Shown here: positions 13,295 through 26,109 of the stretch, piece after piece
How the letters are laid out: each line of letters begins with the position of its first letter
Numbering within the stretch: the stretch's first letter is position 1
DNA from: a virus
UHGV virus genome: UHGV-0097687
DNA length: 26,529 nt
Strand: one strand, 5' to 3'
Position numbers and translations under genes: made by a program
The notes under the pieces: model-generated
Databases searched by the model: none
What the model was told of the DNA's origin: nothing
The model's input: only the letters and a program-made list of their open reading frames with translations

Positions 13295-13821
13295 TTGCGT
13301 AACTCCGATAACTCGTTAAAACGTTCCATAAACATCCCGTAGGCGTGGCCCGGTGCCAGTGGAATCACGTTGAACATCTCTGTTGCCGGGATGCCTTCCA
13401 GTACAGGCCAGAAAGAGCCATCATCAAGCCCGAGATCACGGCGTTCGGTTGCCAGCATGATTAGATCGGCATATTTCACAGGCGTACTCATAACCGGGGG
13501 CAACTCGTATTTCTCACGGATTACTGCGTCTATTTTTTCTTCCATCCGTTTATAGTCAGGAAGAAGGCGTTTCAGTGGTGCGGGGATGTCCTGGCAATAC
13601 GCTTCTGTTGCATCATGCATTAACGCTTCAAAAGCAAATTCCTGCGGCACCAGCTGGCTGCAAAGCACCGCATGTTGGGCGACGCTGTAGAAGTGAGAAA
13701 GATGACCGGCAAAGCGGCAGATATTTGAAAGGGAAACCGCGATATCGTTAATCACGATGTCGTCTTTATTTATCTTGTCATAGTAAAAATGCTTCCCGGA
13801 AAAAGTTTTAATAAATGACAT
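13285..13821 (-). CDS. HD-domain phosphohydrolase (YfdR-like 5'-deoxynucleotidase)
   Basis: Start placed at ATG 13821 (GGAG RBS) giving 178 aa MSFIKTFSGKHFYYDK..; HD signature ..EALMHDATEAY..; longer ORF-track version begins at TTG. Confidence 0.7.
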   Translation of the reverse strand: MSFIKTFSGKHFYYDKINKDDIVINDIAVSLSNICRFAGHLSHFYSVAQHAVLCSQLVPQEFAFEALMHDATEAYCQDIPAPLKRLLPDYKRMEEKIDAVIREKYELPPVMSTPVKYADLIMLATERRDLGLDDGSFWPVLEGIPATEMFNVIPLAPGHAYGMFMERFNELSELRKCA

Positions 13822-13948
13822 TTTGTTCTCCACGTATATGCGCTGCACCGCGCTGAATTCGGGTAAAAGGAAGCCCTCGCCATCAGGCGATTGTTGAGTC
13901 AATTACGTTTCCATAAATGCCCCCGCAGGGGCATTTGCAGCAATGAAA

Positions 13949-14773
13949 TCAGGCGGTGAAAGTACCAATAAAGGTTTCTACTTTGCTGTCTTTGAATTTC
14001 TCAACAAGCAGATCACGAAATTCGTTAGCCATTTCTTCCTGGACTGCTTCCAACTGAATAATGCGCAGAACCAGTACAGGACGATCGCCAGTGATAATGC
14101 TGAGGCGTAATTTAAACGGACGTTCTTTCAGACCTTCAAACGGAACGCATTTAAATTCAAATGCCACTGGCATAATATCTTTGGTCTTCGCTTCGACAGA
14201 CTCCATCAGGGAGCGTTTTCCGCTGAAGTCATTATCTTCAAAATCAGCGGTCTGGTTTGCTTCAATCGTGATTTTACGGACAGCCGCAGCCGCTTTTGTT
14301 GCCTGAATAGCGTCACCATTAGCATCAAAGCCTACAAGGTAGTCGGCCCAGTCTTCAATCCATTCTGCCAGTGACTTCTGGGAGTTACGCTCGCCGTTAA
14401 CAGACAACAGAGCAGAGAACGGTGCTGTCTTTTTCAGTTTGAGAGTGGCGGTGTTATCTGCGTGACCTGGTTCATCAATAGTACCCAGGTTAAGCACACT
14501 GACGGCACGCATATTATCGGCATCAATAAAGCAGCGGGTGCCTTCATTTGCAAGATCTTTAGAATAACGGGTAAAGTCATCGATGCTGGCAGTGGAAAGC
14601 GCACCACGGAAACGGAAGCGATTTAAATTAAATTTTTCCAGATCATGAATGCGGAAGTTCTCAGGCAATGCCACAGCATCGGCACCAATCTTACTGATAA
14701 TTTCATTAACACCCTGAGCAGAAATAAGGGCATGGATTTGATTAATTGCGGTTGCGTCTAAGTTCTGAGACAT
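13949..14773 (-). CDS. Hypothetical protein, YfdQ-like (DUF2303-type)
   Basis: 274 aa; same length and position as remembered E. coli prophage YfdQ; assignment from memory. Confidence 0.55.
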
Positions 14774-14838
14774 AATAAGTCCTCACTATATAAAGATATT
14801 CAGTGATGAGATAAATAATCAGTTTATTAAAAACGATA

Positions 14839-15201
14839 TTAACGACCTGCTGCGCGGAGTTTTCCGTCAGGTTCACCGGCAAGAGTCAGTAATTGTCCCT
14901 GGTCTTCCTGCAGAATAGTCAGGCGACCACCGCGATTGACATACATCGGCGTTTCGGTGGTGTCTTCTTCGGAAATTTTCCCGCGGTTAGTCGGGCGAAC
15001 ATATGAGAGTTTGTGTTTGATTTTCACTCGGTTCTCATCAAACGGTTCGATTTCCAGATTGAGTGAGACCTTACCTTTGGTTTTCGTGTTCATCACACCG
15101 GAAGCGACTTCACTGAGAACTGCGCCGATTTTGGTTTCAAATACGCCGCCGTCCAGCTCCCCGATAAATGCCTGCACATCAGTACTGCGTTCGCTAGCCA
15201 T
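14839..15201 (-). CDS. Hypothetical protein, YfdP-like; first gene of leftward early operon
   Basis: Start placed at ATG 15201 with GAGGAG RBS (120 aa, MASERSTDVQAF..); upstream 60 codons of the tracked ORF lack RBS. Confidence 0.55.
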   Translation of the reverse strand: MASERSTDVQAFIGELDGGVFETKIGAVLSEVASGVMNTKTKGKVSLNLEIEPFDENRVKIKHKLSYVRPTNRGKISEEDTTETPMYVNRGGRLTILQEDQGQLLTLAGEPDGKLRAAGR

Positions 15202-20841: not shown

Positions 20842-21837
20842 GTGACCGTGAGAGCACTACTGACCCCTGAAATTGCCCCGCGTATGGGGATCGTATTGTT
20901 CAGGCCAGGTTCAGAGCTGATGCCCCTGTTTATGCAGGGGCGTGTCCTGCTGGAGCCTGAGCCGGAACGTTATTCATCTTTCGCCAGTGGTGCCGTTCCG
21001 GCGGCATCACAACCGCTGGCGGATGATCCTGCCGTTCGGGCCGTGTTCCGCAATGAGGAAGTGATCCGTCGTGCTGGTGGCGTGGAATGTCTTGAAAGCT
21101 GGTTACTTCGTGAAAAAGGCTGCCAGTGGCCTCATTCCGACTGGCACAGCGAGAACATGACAACAATGCGACACGCGCCGGGCGCAATCCGTCTGTGCTG
21201 GCACTGCGATAACCAGCTGCGCGATCAGTTCACGGAACGGCTGGAATCAATGGCAACGGATAACTGTGCCCGCTGGGTGTTGTCTGTTGTGCGTCGGGAT
21301 CTCGGTTTTGATGACAGTCACGTTGTGACAATGCCGGAACTGTGCTGGTGGCTGATTCGTAATGACTTGGCGGATGCCTTACCGGAAAGTGCAGCCCGTA
21401 AGGCACTGAGATTACCGAAGCCTGTTGTGCCGTCTGTCACCCGGGAAAGTGACCTTGTGCCTTCGGTTCCTGCCACCAGCATCATCCAGGATAAGGCGAA
21501 AAAGGTGCTGGCGCTGAAAGTGGATCCGGAGTCGCCGGAGTCTTTTATGTTACGCCCAAAACGTCGCCGCTGGGTTAATGAAAAGTACACACGCTGGGTT
21601 AAGACACAGCCGTGTGCATGTTGTGGAAAGCCTGCTGATGATCCCCACCACCTGATAGGCCACGGTCAGGGGGGAATGGGTACAAAAGCGCATGACCTCT
21701 TTGTGTTGCCTTTGTGCAGAAAGCATCACGACGAGCTGCATGCGGATACCGTGGCATTTGAAGAGAAGTATGGCTCCCAGCTGGAGCTGATATTTCGTTT
21801 TATCGATCGTGCGCTGGCAATTGGCGTGCTGGCCTGA
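20842..21837 (+). CDS. DUF968-type prophage protein with C-terminal Cys/His cluster
   Basis: 331 aa; ..[28 protein letters not shown].. metal-binding-like; start (GTG 20842 or downstream ATG) uncertain. Confidence 0.6.
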
Positions 21838-21854
21838 TTTTGTGGAGAACGTTG

Positions 21855-22220
21855 ATGCGTGATATTCAAATGGTTCTTGAACGTTGGGGGGCATGGGTGG
21901 CAAATAATCACGAGGATGTCACCTGGTCGTCTATTGCTGCAGGATTTAAAGGACTAATCCCTTCAAAAGTAAAATCCCGCCCGCAATGTTGTGACGATGA
22001 TGCGATGATCATTTGTGGGTGCATGGCTCGCCTGAAAAAGAACAACAGCGATTTGCACGATTTATTAGTGGATTATTATGTAGGTGGTATGACGTTTATG
22101 GCGCTTGCCCGTAAACATGGGCGTTCTGATTGCTGGGTTGGGCGTTTATTGCAAAAGGCTGAAGGTGTAGTTGATGGCATGTTAATGATGTTAGAAATTG
22201 AGCTAGAGATGGATCGTTAG
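21855..22220 (+). CDS. Q: Late-gene antiterminator Q
   Basis: [42 protein letters not shown].. matches remembered Q of Stx-type lambdoid phages; Cys-rich zinc-binding-like motif. Confidence 0.78.
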
Positions 22221-22262
22221 AAGACCTCTTATTGAGGGGGTAATTGAATCAGTTTAATGTGT

Positions 22263-22293
22263 GGGGAGTCGATTTATTCTCCCCATTTTATTT
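22263..22293 (+). terminator. Intrinsic terminator just downstream of Q
   Basis: GGGGAG-10 nt-CTCCCC followed by ATTTTATTT. Confidence 0.5.
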
Positions 22294-22304
22294 AATTAAT
22301 TTAC

Positions 22305-22751
22305 TTAAGGTTTTAATTCATCAAGACGTTGTTGGATAGTGTTTTTGCTTGCGTTGTCTGTTATAGCCATTTGTTGTACTTGCCCCATTGCCATTTGAGT
22401 TTCCATCCACATATCGGCCCACACTTTTGTATCGTTATTAACTTGAGCGATAGTAAATCTGACTTTTGATACCGGGGTTGTTGAATAGGCATTGCCGATT
22501 AACATTTGTCCAAAAACAGCAGACCCGCCTTCCAGTTCTTTACCACATATAACACTGCTGTTATCAGCGTTGTAAATTATCAACCCTCTACTATTGCAGT
22601 AATTCACAAGGGCATCTTTGACTTTATCTTTTGTCGTATTTTGATAAACCCCCTCAGGTTTTCCTGATTGAGTTTTTTTTATCAATGGTACGGAAGAAGT
22701 ACAACCTGAAATGATAGTTGCGCTAAGTAATAGTACAGTCATTTTATTCAT
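22305..22751 (-). CDS. Lipoprotein moron of unknown function (opposite strand, AT-rich)
   Basis: 148 aa; signal peptide with lipobox ..LLSATIISGC; low GC relative to flanks. Confidence 0.6.
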   Translation of the reverse strand: MNKMTVLLLSATIISGCTSSVPLIKKTQSGKPEGVYQNTTKDKVKDALVNYCNSRGLIIYNADNSSVICGKELEGGSAVFGQMLIGNAYSTTPVSKVRFTIAQVNNDTKVWADMWMETQMAMGQVQQMAITDNASKNTIQQRLDELKP

Positions 22752-22875
22752 GTTTCTTATCCATTGTTAAGGGCATACCTACACAATTATTTTTATTGGA
22801 GATGAATAATCAACCGTTTACAATCGTAAAAAATCAAATATGCTGTTAAGAGTGGTTACTTCGCCACACAACTTA

Positions 22876-22899
22876 AACCCGCCGCTGAGCGGTTTTTTT
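22876..22899 (+). terminator. Intrinsic terminator (candidate tR'-type target of Q antitermination)
   Basis: CCGC-TGA-GCGG hairpin followed by TTTTTTT; possible promoter TTTACA-16-TATGCT about 60 nt upstream. Confidence 0.4.
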
Positions 22900-22997
22900 G
22901 TACCTGTAAACTTGGTGCAGTACAGTAAACACGCTGGTGGTCGTGAATACTGACCTTTTATCTTGCTGGCTTTTTAGACAAGAGTTATTGGTATGTC

Positions 22998-23216
22998 ATG
23001 TTAACCAGAAGGGAAAAAGACATGCTAAAACAGCAAGATATGACAGAAACCGCCGCCGCAGTCCTTCATTTCTTACCTGCTGACAAGTGGGTAACGCCAC
23101 GCATGATGACGAGAACTACCGGAGTAAGCGAAGCCCGGTGCCAGTTAATACTGACTCAGTTAGTTCTGGCGGGTCTGGCGAAGGATAACGGGAATAAATT
23201 CAGACGCTGCCAGTAA
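22998..23216 (+). CDS. Hypothetical small protein
   Basis: 72 aa ORF; start ambiguous (22998 or 23022). Confidence 0.4.
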   Translation: MLTRREKDMLKQQDMTETAAAVLHFLPADKWVTPRMMTRTTGVSEARCQLILTQLVLAGLAKDNGNKFRRCQ

Positions 23217-23366
23217 TGGCGGTTTCCTGCTGTGAAAATGGGCGGCTGGTGGGTGTTGGTAGCACCTGCCAGCCATTCGCTCATGCTTACTGGTCACAAG
23301 CGAACCACGGCCCACTGCTTTAGCGCAAAAGCAGAGTGAGCCTACCAGAGTTACGCTTACTGATCC

Positions 23367-24419
23367 ATGAAAAATACTGTAAAAATAAACAGTGTTGATT
23401 TAATCAACGCTGATTGCCTGCATTTTATTCAGTCCCTGCCTGATGATTCCATTGACCTGATTGTTACCGATCCGCCGTACTTCAAGGTGAAACCCAACGG
23501 TTGGGACAATCAGTGGAAAGGGGACGAAGATTACCTTAAGTGGCTGGACCACTGTCTGGCCCAGTTCTGGCGGGTGTTAAAACCTGCCGGAAGCCTTTAC
23601 CTGTTCTGTGGGCATCGCCTGGCATCTGATATTGAGATCATGATGCGTGAACGTTTCAACGTGCTTAACCATATCATCTGGGCGAAGCCGTCCGGACGTT
23701 GGAATGGGTGTAATAAAGAAAGTCTGCGCGCATATTTTCCTGCCACAGAGCGCGTTCTGTTTGCTGAACATTACCAGGGGCCATATCGCGGCAAAAGTGA
23801 CGGCTATGCGGCAAAAGAAAGGGAACTCAAACAGCACATAATGGCACCGCTGATATCGTATTTCAGGGATGCTCGTGCCGAACTGGGTATAACGGCAAAA
23901 CAAATTGCCGAAGCCACAGGTAAGAAAAATATGGTTTCCCACTGGTTTGGTGCCAGTCAGTGGCAGTTGCCGAATGAGGCTGACTATCGGAAGTTACAGG
24001 CACTGTTTTCCCGTATAGCGGCAGAGAAGTTTCAGGAACAACAACTGGAACAACCACACCACCAGCTGGTGGCATCTTATGATTCACTGAATCGCAAATA
24101 TTCTGAATTGCTGGATGAGTTTAAATCTCTCCGGCGCTATTTCTCCGTATCAGTCTCCGTGCCTTATACCGATGTCTGGATGCATAAACCCGTTCAGTTC
24201 TACCCGGGTAAACATCCGTGTGAGAAACCGGCGGATATGCTCAGGCAAATAATCAATGCCAGTAGTCGACCTGGTGATCTGGTTGCTGATTTTTTTATGG
24301 GATCCGGTTCCACAATAAAAGCAGCAATGGCGCTGGGGCGTCGGGCCTTAGGTGTTGAGCTTGAGTCAGAGCGGTTTAACCAGACAGTGAAAGAGATAAA
24401 CGAGCTGGTGGGGAAATAA
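23367..24419 (+). CDS. DNA methyltransferase, N6/N4 (beta-class, DPPY motif near N-terminus)
   Basis: 350 aa; ..[10 protein letters not shown].. catalytic motif early, SAM-binding ..DFFMGSGST.. late. Confidence 0.85.
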
Positions 24420-25120: not shown

Positions 25121-25654
25121 ATGAACGTAAAAATCAGATACAGCCTGTCGGCTGCTGTTCTGGCACTGATTGCCGTCGGTGCGCCCGCGCCTGACATTCT
25201 CGATCAGTTTCTGGATGAAAAAGAGGGGAATCACATCACTGCATACCGCGATGGCTCCGGCATATGGACCATCTGTCGGGGAGCAACGATGGTGGACGGT
25301 AAACCTGTTATTCCGGGAATGAAACTGTCGAAGGAAAAATGCGCCCAGGTTAACGCCATTGAGCGGGATAAGGCGCTGGCATGGGTGGAGCGCAATATTA
25401 AAGTGCCACTGACCGAACCACAGAAAGCGGGTATCGCGTCATTTTGTCCCTATAACATTGGCCCCGGTAAGTGTTTCCCGTCGACGTTTTATAAGCGGCT
25501 GAATGCCGGTGATCGTAAGGGTGCATGTGAGGCGATTCGTTGGTGGATAAAAGATGGTGGGCGCGATTGCCGCATACGTTCAAATAACTGCTATGGGCAA
25601 GTTATTCGTCGTGACCAGGAAAGCGCATTAGCCTGTTGGGGGATAGATCAGTGA
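25121..25654 (+). CDS. R: SAR endolysin (phage lysozyme, R21-like)
   Basis: N-terminal signal-anchor ..[15 protein letters not shown]..; catalytic E-D-T region ..[22 protein letters not shown]..; resembles remembered phage 21 R. Confidence 0.85.
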
Positions 25655-26109
25655 GCAGAGTCGCCGCGATTATTTATGCTCTGGTTATCTGCATCATCGT
25701 CTGCCTGTCATGGGCTGTTAATCATTACCGTGATAACGCAATCGCCTACAAAGAGCAGCGCGATAACAAGGCCAGTGAACTGGAGAAGGCGAACGCCACC
25801 ATCGCTGACATGCGGAAGCGTCAACGTGATGTAGCAGAACTCGACGCCAGATACACAAAGGAGCTTGCTGATGCTAATGCGACTATCGAAAGTCTCCGTG
25901 CTGATGTTTCTGCTGGTCGTAAGCGCCTGCAAGTCGCCGCCACCTGTGCAAAGTCAACGACCGGAGCCAGCAGCATGGGCGATGGAGAAAGCCCAAGACT
26001 TACAGCAGATGCTGAACTCAATTATTACCGTCTCCGAAGTGGAATCGACAAGATAACCGCGCAGGTTAACTACCTGCAGGAATACATCAGGACGCAATGC
26101 CTGAAATAA
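25651..26109 (+). CDS. Rz: i-spanin Rz
   Basis: GTG start overlapping R stop; ..[33 protein letters not shown].. matches remembered lambda Rz. Confidence 0.8.
25871..26056 (+). CDS. Rz1: o-spanin Rz1 (lipoprotein, embedded in +1 frame of Rz)
   Basis: ..LVVSAC lipobox followed by Pro-rich [16 protein letters not shown]; embedded like lambda Rz1. Confidence 0.72.

Follow-up and report, generated by a model that had tools for sequence, protein, structure and literature searches.

The DNA analysed here is the 26,529-nt viral genome UHGV-0097687 (the window, by which we mean this whole stretch), and our subject is the junction within it between the gene of the antiterminator Q and the late genes, where an opposite-strand lipoprotein gene is followed by a promoter-like site and flanked by two hairpins with plus-strand T-runs. 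Around the junction the genes are, in order, KilA-N protein, DUF968/HNH protein, Q, a 148-residue minus-strand open reading frame (ORF) encoding the lipoprotein, an ORF of 67-72 residues and an N6/N4 DNA methylase, past which come a P21-type holin, DUF1327, lysozyme and Rz/Rz1. Phages PhiR40_1 and PhiR55_1 match bases 21840-23400 with 99.4% identity, and equally close prophages lie in 162 of 5,426 complete E. coli genomes; among the matches listed, isolates carrying the arrangement came from humans, poultry, cattle and river water. By its sequence, the window belongs to a lambdoid prophage of E. coli. PhiR40_1, in the annotation of which the lipoprotein also lies between Q and the downstream genes, is a plaque-forming phage that served as a test phage (PMC13190303), and hence the arrangement works in a live phage.

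The Q gene (21855..22220, plus strand) encodes 121 residues from the ATG at 21855 and belongs to PF06530, the Q21/Q933 type (E = 1.8e-51; 173.5 bits where the cut-off is 26; all 118 positions of the profile covered). The protein is 82.6% identical to Q of H-19B and 79-82% identical to Q proteins of the 933W type. In H-19B, 933W and Sakai Sp5 the Q protein has 144 residues and the 3' tail of its gene leads straight into the late promoter pR' with no cargo between, whereas here likeness to other Q genes ends behind ...LEMD near 22214 (the alignment breaks after GAGATGGAT) and is taken up again only with the -35 element (22817). From where the Q match ends, the leader motif of the late transcript is 626 nt away, against 86 nt in those three phages. 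The DNA between, a cargo cassette of about 600 bp (22215..22816) inserted between the Q core and pR', has 36.5% guanine plus cytosine (GC) compared with 44-49% in its flanks and 45.8% in the whole window. It holds the final two codons and the stop codon of Q, a hairpin (T1), the opposite-strand lipoprotein gene and about 65 bp upstream of that gene. Its right edge abuts the -35 element, and one further locus (L106) has the same pR' with other DNA to the left.

Base for base, 22817-22904 of the window can be aligned with the DNA at and just past the end of the Q gene in H-19B, 933W and Sakai Sp5, which overlaps the Q stop codon. The alignment comprises a -35 element of the form TTTAC(G/A), a spacer element CGTAAAAA, a -10 element of the form TAnnnT, an invariant block TAAGAGTGGTTAC, and a hairpin with its T-run, and the 933W record labels these elements pR', qut and rho-independent terminator. 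The promoter aligns with those of DLP12 and 2G7b as well. By this homology TTTACA-16-TATGCT (22817..22844, plus strand; -35 TTTACA at 22817-22822, -10 TATGCT at 22839-22844, 16-nt spacing) is the late promoter pR', the site on which Q would act. The homology is needed, since the promoter and the hairpin behind it are both weak on their own statistics: the site matches nine of the twelve consensus positions, and the seven promoter-like sites found, compared with 3.6 +/- 2.1 expected, are not significant alone.

The conserved leader (22844..22872, plus strand; TGTTAAGAGTGGTTAC...) covers the site annotated 'qut' in 933W. Its TAAGAGTGGTTAC block is identical in 933W, H-19B, Sp5, DLP12 and 2G7b and lies at the same distance from the -35/-10 pair, and the window has one exact copy of the leader motif (22847-22859). 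In both Stx phages of the Sakai strain (Sp5 and Sp15) the PR' start was mapped by dRNA-seq and the tR' 3' end by Term-seq, 258 nt apart (Sy et al., PMC7547250). The coordinates of that report belong to an older sequence version and require a shift of 142 to the current record (L007), in which the distance from A846, 7 nt after TATCAT, to T1103, the last base of the tR' T-run, is exactly 258 nt. The window base equivalent to the Sakai start is A22851 and, judging from this spacing, transcription probably starts there. A pR' directly after Q was rejected: the DNA from the Q stop codon to T1 (22221-22260) has neither a promoter-like site nor a copy of the leader motif. The first 17 nt of the pR' transcript (window 22852-22867) can fold as GUGGU UACUUC GCCAC, a sequence kept in all relatives, with DLP12 having a G-U for one G-C pair. 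This small hairpin overlaps the 933W 'qut' annotation, and the constraint may be on RNA or on DNA.

The first intrinsic terminator after pR', tR' (22875..22899, plus strand, +25 to +49), is a weakened allele, CCCGCCGCUGAGCGG plus U7. It has the GC-rich stem-loop and following U-tract of an intrinsic terminator in a weak form, a GC stem of 4-5 bp followed by seven U (folding free energy, dG, -6.3 to -6.7; z -1.0), which is not significant alone. It is homologous to the hairpins of 933W, H-19B, DLP12 and SfV, and the records of 933W, SfV and Ayreon mark a terminator at the homologous site. Of 54 distinct related leaders, 53 have a hairpin with a U-run at +43 to +65 relative to the start, and the stems differ in sequence yet pair (CCCGC/GCGGG, CCUCGC/GCGGGG, CCGCCA/UGGUGG and CCUGCUA/UGGUAGG), as expected of compensatory changes. 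The window allele has one G fewer than those of SfV and DLP12, which takes dG from about -11.7 to -6.3. The same weakened allele is present with several Q subfamilies and is therefore evidently tolerated.

The likeness to the Stx phages extends over promoter, start site, 'qut' leader and first hairpin, all of which are homologous, and window bases 22851-22904 are 82% identical to nt 1-54 of StxS_L. In the Stx phages a second terminator at +258 yields StxS, whereas the window is without the 74-nt functional 3' part of StxS (no match in the window beyond 11-nt chance matches), without stx and without tRNA genes of the kind that those phages carry (looked for, with none found). The Stx phages themselves have a strong hairpin plus U7 at +25 to +50 past PR' (Sakai Sp5, L007 870-895; 933W, L018 762-784). 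Phage 21 likewise has a terminator within about 50 nt of the start, its annotated terminator ending at about +50. An Rfam scan of 21800-23500 gave only a minus-strand STnc130 match below threshold (24 bits, cut-off 55), which coincides with tR' and which we rejected as chance.

Related loci bear on whether the Q of the window is cognate to pR'. IMG/VR was scanned for TGNTAAGAGTGGTTAC and Q homologues were located by tblastn; as IMG/VR is redundant, all counts from it are sample proportions only, among the matches listed. The leader motif was the search pattern and so its invariance within the sample proves nothing; the informative point is that it occurs with highly divergent Q proteins. Across loci L022-L141, palindromes of 8-14 bp overlap the -35 of pR' and are followed by an A-tract, upstream of the common leader TGnTAAGAGTGGTTAC. 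Each of twelve Q clusters, 39-100% identical to the window Q, goes with a palindrome particular to it, which is always placed at about -34 to -21 relative to the start. All 44 loci with a Q that is 79-100% identical, with or without cargo, have TTTAC(G/A)(A/T)(T/A)CGTAAA, that is, TTTACGATCGTAAA or TTTACGTACGTAAA. A Q of about 50% identity goes with GCGGTCCGC, one of about 43% with GCGTACGC, and further Q clusters with TGTTATAACA, TTCGTTACGAA, TGGAATTCCA and TGTCATGACA. In the window the element is TTTACAATCGTAAA (22817-22830), an imperfect 14-bp palindrome in which the one mismatch results in a better -35. The match of Q subfamily to palindrome supports cognate pairing of the window Q with pR', from which Q dependence of the promoter would follow, and it nominates the palindrome as a candidate Q-binding element. 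Genetic linkage without binding could yield the same pattern. Phage 21, the Q of which is also of PF06530 but only 33% identical over part of the protein, shares with the window, where the element is a candidate, the placing of a Q-binding element between -35 and -10; the Q21 element is a direct repeat (ATTGAGCA / AATGAGCA), whereas the candidate here is an inverted repeat overlapping the -35.

The same sample shows how often DNA is inserted between Q and pR'. A PF06530-type Q lies upstream in 91 IMG/VR loci: in 32 it is adjacent to the leader (71-111 nt) and in the other 59 there are 0.6-3.1 kb between the two, with the intervening ORFs nearly all on the opposite strand. Porins occur in 25 of the 63 cargo-bearing loci (a figure that includes four reference loci from outside IMG/VR). 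Other cargo comprises a KAP NTPase, an NYN-domain protein, an AAA_15/AAA_21 ATPase with a methyltransferase-like partner (not profile-checked) and another lipoprotein, and several unnamed two- or three-gene cassettes at the junction look like defence systems. The Q|pR' junction is thus a general cargo hotspot. With Q and pR' contiguous in H-19B, 933W and the 32 adjacent loci, and with a composition that differs, the cassette of the window is a moron in the sense of Hendrix. As to a moron's own promoter and terminator, a predicted promoter lies upstream of the lipoprotein gene (22786..22813, minus strand; TTGATT-16-AATAAT, start near 22779), where the consensus scan gave nine matches of twelve, and the hairpin downstream of the gene has its U-tract on the other strand. 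If TTGATT-16-AATAAT is real, it stands back to back with pR', the two -35 hexamers lying 3 bp apart.

The closest known counterpart is DLP12 of E. coli K-12, in which quuD is followed by a hairpin, the minus-strand porin gene nmpC (interrupted by IS5), then TTTACGTACGTAAAAAATTGGTTATGCTGTTAAGAGTGGTTAC..., a hairpin and essD. Phage 2G7b likewise has Q, a minus-strand OmpD-like porin gene, the same pR' and a holin gene. The DLP12 Q is of the same subfamily (86-87% identity over 108 residues) with the same break after ...LEMD; its cargo is also on the opposite strand and encodes an envelope protein, with a hairpin between the convergent genes, and its pR' (TTTACG-16-TATGCT), TAAGAGTGGTTAC leader and promoter-proximal hairpin also lead to P21-type lysis genes. 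The differences are that the window carries a lipoprotein of 148 residues where DLP12 and 2G7b carry a porin of 360-380, that the cassette is about 0.6 kb rather than 1.7-2.9 kb, that the U-tract of the hairpin is on the Q strand here and on the cargo strand in DLP12, and that the interval from tR' to the holin contains a small ORF and a methylase here. The slot of the lipoprotein cassette is therefore the nmpC/lc porin slot of DLP12 and PA-2, the layout is an ordinary and long-known one, and the lipoprotein is a new member of its cargo. Lc of PA-2 lowers OmpC and thereby excludes PA-2. In phage 1H12, with a Q that is 95% identical over 108 residues, the genes that come next are that of a Blc lipocalin lipoprotein, on the opposite strand, and a YbgA-like one; the exact leader motif is missing there, and close behind Q stands a StxS-like terminator (GCCAGCCTCCCCAAAGGCTGG plus T8).

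Within the cassette, the predicted terminator T1 (22261..22298, plus strand) lies between the convergent Q and lipoprotein genes. Its arms GUGGGGAG / CUCCCCAU (22261-22268 / 22279-22286) pair over 8 bp around a 10-nt loop and are followed by UUUUAUUUAAUU, the run UUUUAUUU being present after the stem on the plus strand only. By its predicted fold (dG -13.0, z -3.0; one of 200 shuffles folds as well) T1 is a stable stem-loop with a U-rich tract, as in an intrinsic terminator, and 21700-23500 holds eight terminator-like sites compared with 1.6 +/- 1.3 in shuffled sequences. T1 lies upstream of pR', so that a polymerase modified by Q at pR' never meets it. The strand-specific U-tract suggests that T1 insulates against run-on from Q. 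It is possible, though doubtful, that T1 is instead a bidirectional terminator of the lipoprotein gene and no insulator against Q transcripts. T1 sits 7-44 nt past the lipoprotein stop codon; homologous morons elsewhere have a canonical terminator on the gene's own strand in the same relative place, from which T1 may act bidirectionally or as an RNA stabiliser, and in DLP12 the U-tract of the hairpin after quuD is on the cargo strand. Against such a role, the minus strand of T1 has ACACAUUAAAC after the stem and no U-tract.

Taken as a whole, the region is best explained as a late-control junction in which Q is separated from its own promoter by a cargo cassette, and we hold this reading with good confidence. 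Q would act in trans at pR', with a start at about A22851, and carry polymerase past tR' into the small ORF, the methylase and the lysis genes. Because the lipoprotein gene is on the opposite strand and lies between Q and pR', late transcription would never cross the cassette. In the lysogen the lipoprotein would be transcribed from its own promoter, divergent from pR', while T1 would halt unmodified rightward transcripts leaving Q, which would shield the lipoprotein gene and prevent run-on into the late genes. What we observe directly is the gene, the limits of the cassette and the homology of pR' and tR', and it is for the lipoprotein promoter, the role of T1, the localisation of the protein and its exclusion function that we rely on inference.

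Several points weigh against this picture. The lipoprotein promoter is a 9/12 consensus match in AT-rich DNA, and the function proposed for its product is drawn from context and analogy. The tR' allele is weak, with dG of about -6.3 compared with -11.7 in DLP12, and in the Stx phages the transcripts that give the 258-nt StxS RNA evidently pass the homologous hairpin; with a hairpin at +25 to +50 and a 258-nt precursor, some transcripts must pass the first terminator without Q. The shift of 142 applied to the Sakai coordinates is itself deduced, although it is consistent at both ends. T1 could be a mere RNA-stabilising hairpin between convergent genes.

A preliminary description of the locus had noted AT-rich DNA, a 148-residue lipoprotein on the opposite strand and two plus-strand terminators, and all of these hold: GC is 0.35-0.39 across about 22150-23050 compared with 0.46-0.59 on either side, the lipoprotein ORF is present at 22305-22751, in DNA that looks foreign, with a conserved lipobox Cys17, and of the terminators T1 is strong and the second is weak alone and conserved in the leaders. 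It had also put forward the second terminator with TTTACA-16-TATGCT as a candidate Q target, which the homology to 933W, H-19B, the Sakai PR' and the DLP12 late region bears out. T1 is no Q target, owing to its place upstream of pR', and the result thereby identifies which terminator is relevant to Q. For annotation it means that the late promoter and terminator of a common type of E. coli prophage lie about 600 bp from Q. Current understanding is not overturned; a lipoprotein is added to the porins, KAP NTPases, NYN-domain proteins and ATPase-plus-methylase pairs that make up Q|pR' cargo.

The lipoprotein gene (22305..22751, minus strand) encodes 148 residues beginning MNKMTVLLLSATIISGC, with a signal peptide and the lipobox IISG|C17 followed by Thr at +2. 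The lipobox (MNKMTVLLLSATIISG|C17) fits the pattern [LVI][ASTVI][GAS]C. Cys17 is invariant in 20 close homologues and kept in at least 90% of 49 diverse ones, in which Cys52 and Cys69 are invariant; the gene is a real one. The motifs SGKPE, GNAYST and WxETQM are also kept. Position +2 is Thr here and Ala in most homologues, with no Asp. Under the Lol rule of E. coli, absence of Asp at +2 means sorting to the outer membrane, and the protein is accordingly predicted to be anchored there; the pair Cys52/Cys69 suggests a periplasmic disulfide. The product would thus be a Lol-sorted, probably outer-membrane-anchored and disulfide-bonded periplasmic protein.

Searches gave the family no useful name. 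The sole PHROG match is phrog_3152 (E = 1e-104), itself unnamed, and no match was found in Pfam (E <= 0.01), NCBIfam or PADLOC-DB (0 defence families). An AlphaFold2 model (pLDDT 85.8) gave no fold match to a phage exclusion lipoprotein, a profile search of PDB sequences found nothing, and a second word-indexed homologue search with a 49-sequence profile produced no new names. The profile search returned 823 clusters at 50% identity, and in some of them the C terminus is extended by a fused PDZ or TPR/CpoB-like domain. The only functional name among the source names listed for homologues, 'Type IV secretion system putative lipoprotein virB7' for one Xenorhabdus homologue in UniRef, we took to be an automatic mislabel. 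An o-spanin identity was ruled out, as Rz and Rz1 are at 25636-26109 and 25865-26056.

All 10 of the other contexts examined are phage-like. Of the close homologues, all in prophage-like surroundings, the one from Salmonella stands between gpK and gpI and that from Jejubacter immediately ahead of gpI/gpJ. A Citrobacter homologue and one in a second assembly occupy the interval from the tape-measure gene to gpM, and others are found past gpJ, in a darA region like that of P1 and in an early region. Distant homologues (31-43% identity) lie two genes past a cI-like S24 repressor, in a region that also has a small terminase and an Mrr-type nuclease, and in the replication region of a phage. The first of these (L143/L144, 2236-2688; 42% identity) is on the same strand as the cI-like (Peptidase_S24) repressor gene and divergent from a Cro-like gene, an arrangement which suggests that it is co-expressed with the repressor in lysogens. 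Most of these contexts are slots usual for lysogen-expressed exclusion or defence genes.

Given these positions, the lipoprotein would most likely act by excluding superinfecting phage at the envelope, through receptor masking or a block of injection; going by context, we consider envelope-level superinfection exclusion quite possible, if short of probable. The preliminary description had compared the protein with Bor and Cor. That comparison stands as an analogy of small phage lipoproteins and finds no match in sequence or fold. Bor (lambda), Cor (phi80, N15 and HK022) and Llp (T5) are also small phage or prophage lipoproteins encoded by moron-like genes, and in some phages cor and llp are placed beside receptor-binding tail genes. 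The lipoprotein of the window differs from them in having no sequence similarity (none by Pfam or NCBIfam, and phrog_3152 only among PHROGs), and at 148 residues it is larger than Bor, Cor or Llp. No Pfam family at E <= 0.01 places it in Bor/Iss (Lambda_Bor), and neither sequence nor fold (the Cor PHROG, the T5 Llp structure) places it with Cor or Llp.

Combined with the palindromes, exclusion would make a wider proposal: that the lipoproteins form a new and widespread family of phage superinfection-exclusion proteins and that the inverted repeat at pR' is the Q-binding element of the 933W/DLP12-type Q. As a joint claim this is possible, though doubtful. If true, recognition of an inverted repeat would be unlike that of the Q21 direct repeat, and the Q-binding repeat would explain why the stretch from Q to its element is a general hotspot for opposite-strand defence cargo. 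An unnamed and apparently phage-restricted lipoprotein family is in any case a cheap superinfection-exclusion candidate, PhiR40_1 being already in culture.

An alternative is that the lipoprotein is a host-fitness or virulence factor, acting in serum resistance or adhesion in the manner of Bor, Iss or Lom, rather than against phages. An opposite-strand moron in AT-rich DNA that encodes an envelope protein is indeed what bor and lom are, and the presence of the arrangement in 162 of 5,426 E. coli genomes, with human, poultry, cattle and river-water isolates among the matches listed, would suit such a role. We think it unlikely: there is no Bor match in Pfam, and homologues recur in or near tail-tip clusters and beside a repressor or a restriction nuclease, positions of exclusion and defence genes, although this is not decisive. 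Less likely still is a lipoprotein that serves the phage's own lytic cycle, by blocking receptors on lysing cells and debris as T5 Llp does, or one with an envelope role that has nothing to do with phage entry. Same-strand homologues inside the late tail operons of several prophages would be made late, but in the window the gene is opposite to late transcription and upstream of pR' and cannot be a late product.

Very improbable is the view, put forward in the preliminary description, that the lipoprotein occupies the stx cargo slot downstream of Q action with either plus-strand terminator as a Q-controlled tR': lipoprotein and stx do each stand somewhere between Q and the lysis genes, and each hairpin has a plus-strand T-run, but stx in 933W and Sakai lies after pR', inside the late transcript downstream of pR'-tR', whereas the cassette precedes pR' with its gene on the other strand, and the DNA from the Q stop codon to T1 shows neither promoter-like site nor leader copy. 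The late-control junction with its cassette upstream of pR' instead leaves the stx-equivalent slot, after pR'-tR' and before the holin, to the ORF of 67-72 residues and the methylase; in 933W and Sakai that slot has stx after pR', two terminators and tRNA genes.

The N6/N4 DNA methyltransferase (23367..24419, plus strand) matches PF01555 (E = 2e-42) and PADLOC MTase_II. It is preceded by the first ORF of the late transcript (22998..23216, plus strand; 72 residues, or 67 from the ATG at 23013), which belongs to phrog_331 and the phiP27 homologue of which is annotated at NCBI as a TrmB-family regulator. From the tR' hairpin on, the module of small ORF and methylase is about 97% identical in SfV, mEp460, cdtI, Ayreon and Stx2c phages, which have an unrelated Q. 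Since phages with unrelated Q share DNA from the hairpin onward, a module boundary lies just 5' of the hairpin. The near-identical matches to bases 21840-23400 are all 9 bp longer than this stretch of the window (1570 compared with 1561 bases; PhiR40_1 13361-14930); 21855-23030 aligns without gaps, and the 9-bp indel lies within about 23030-23400.

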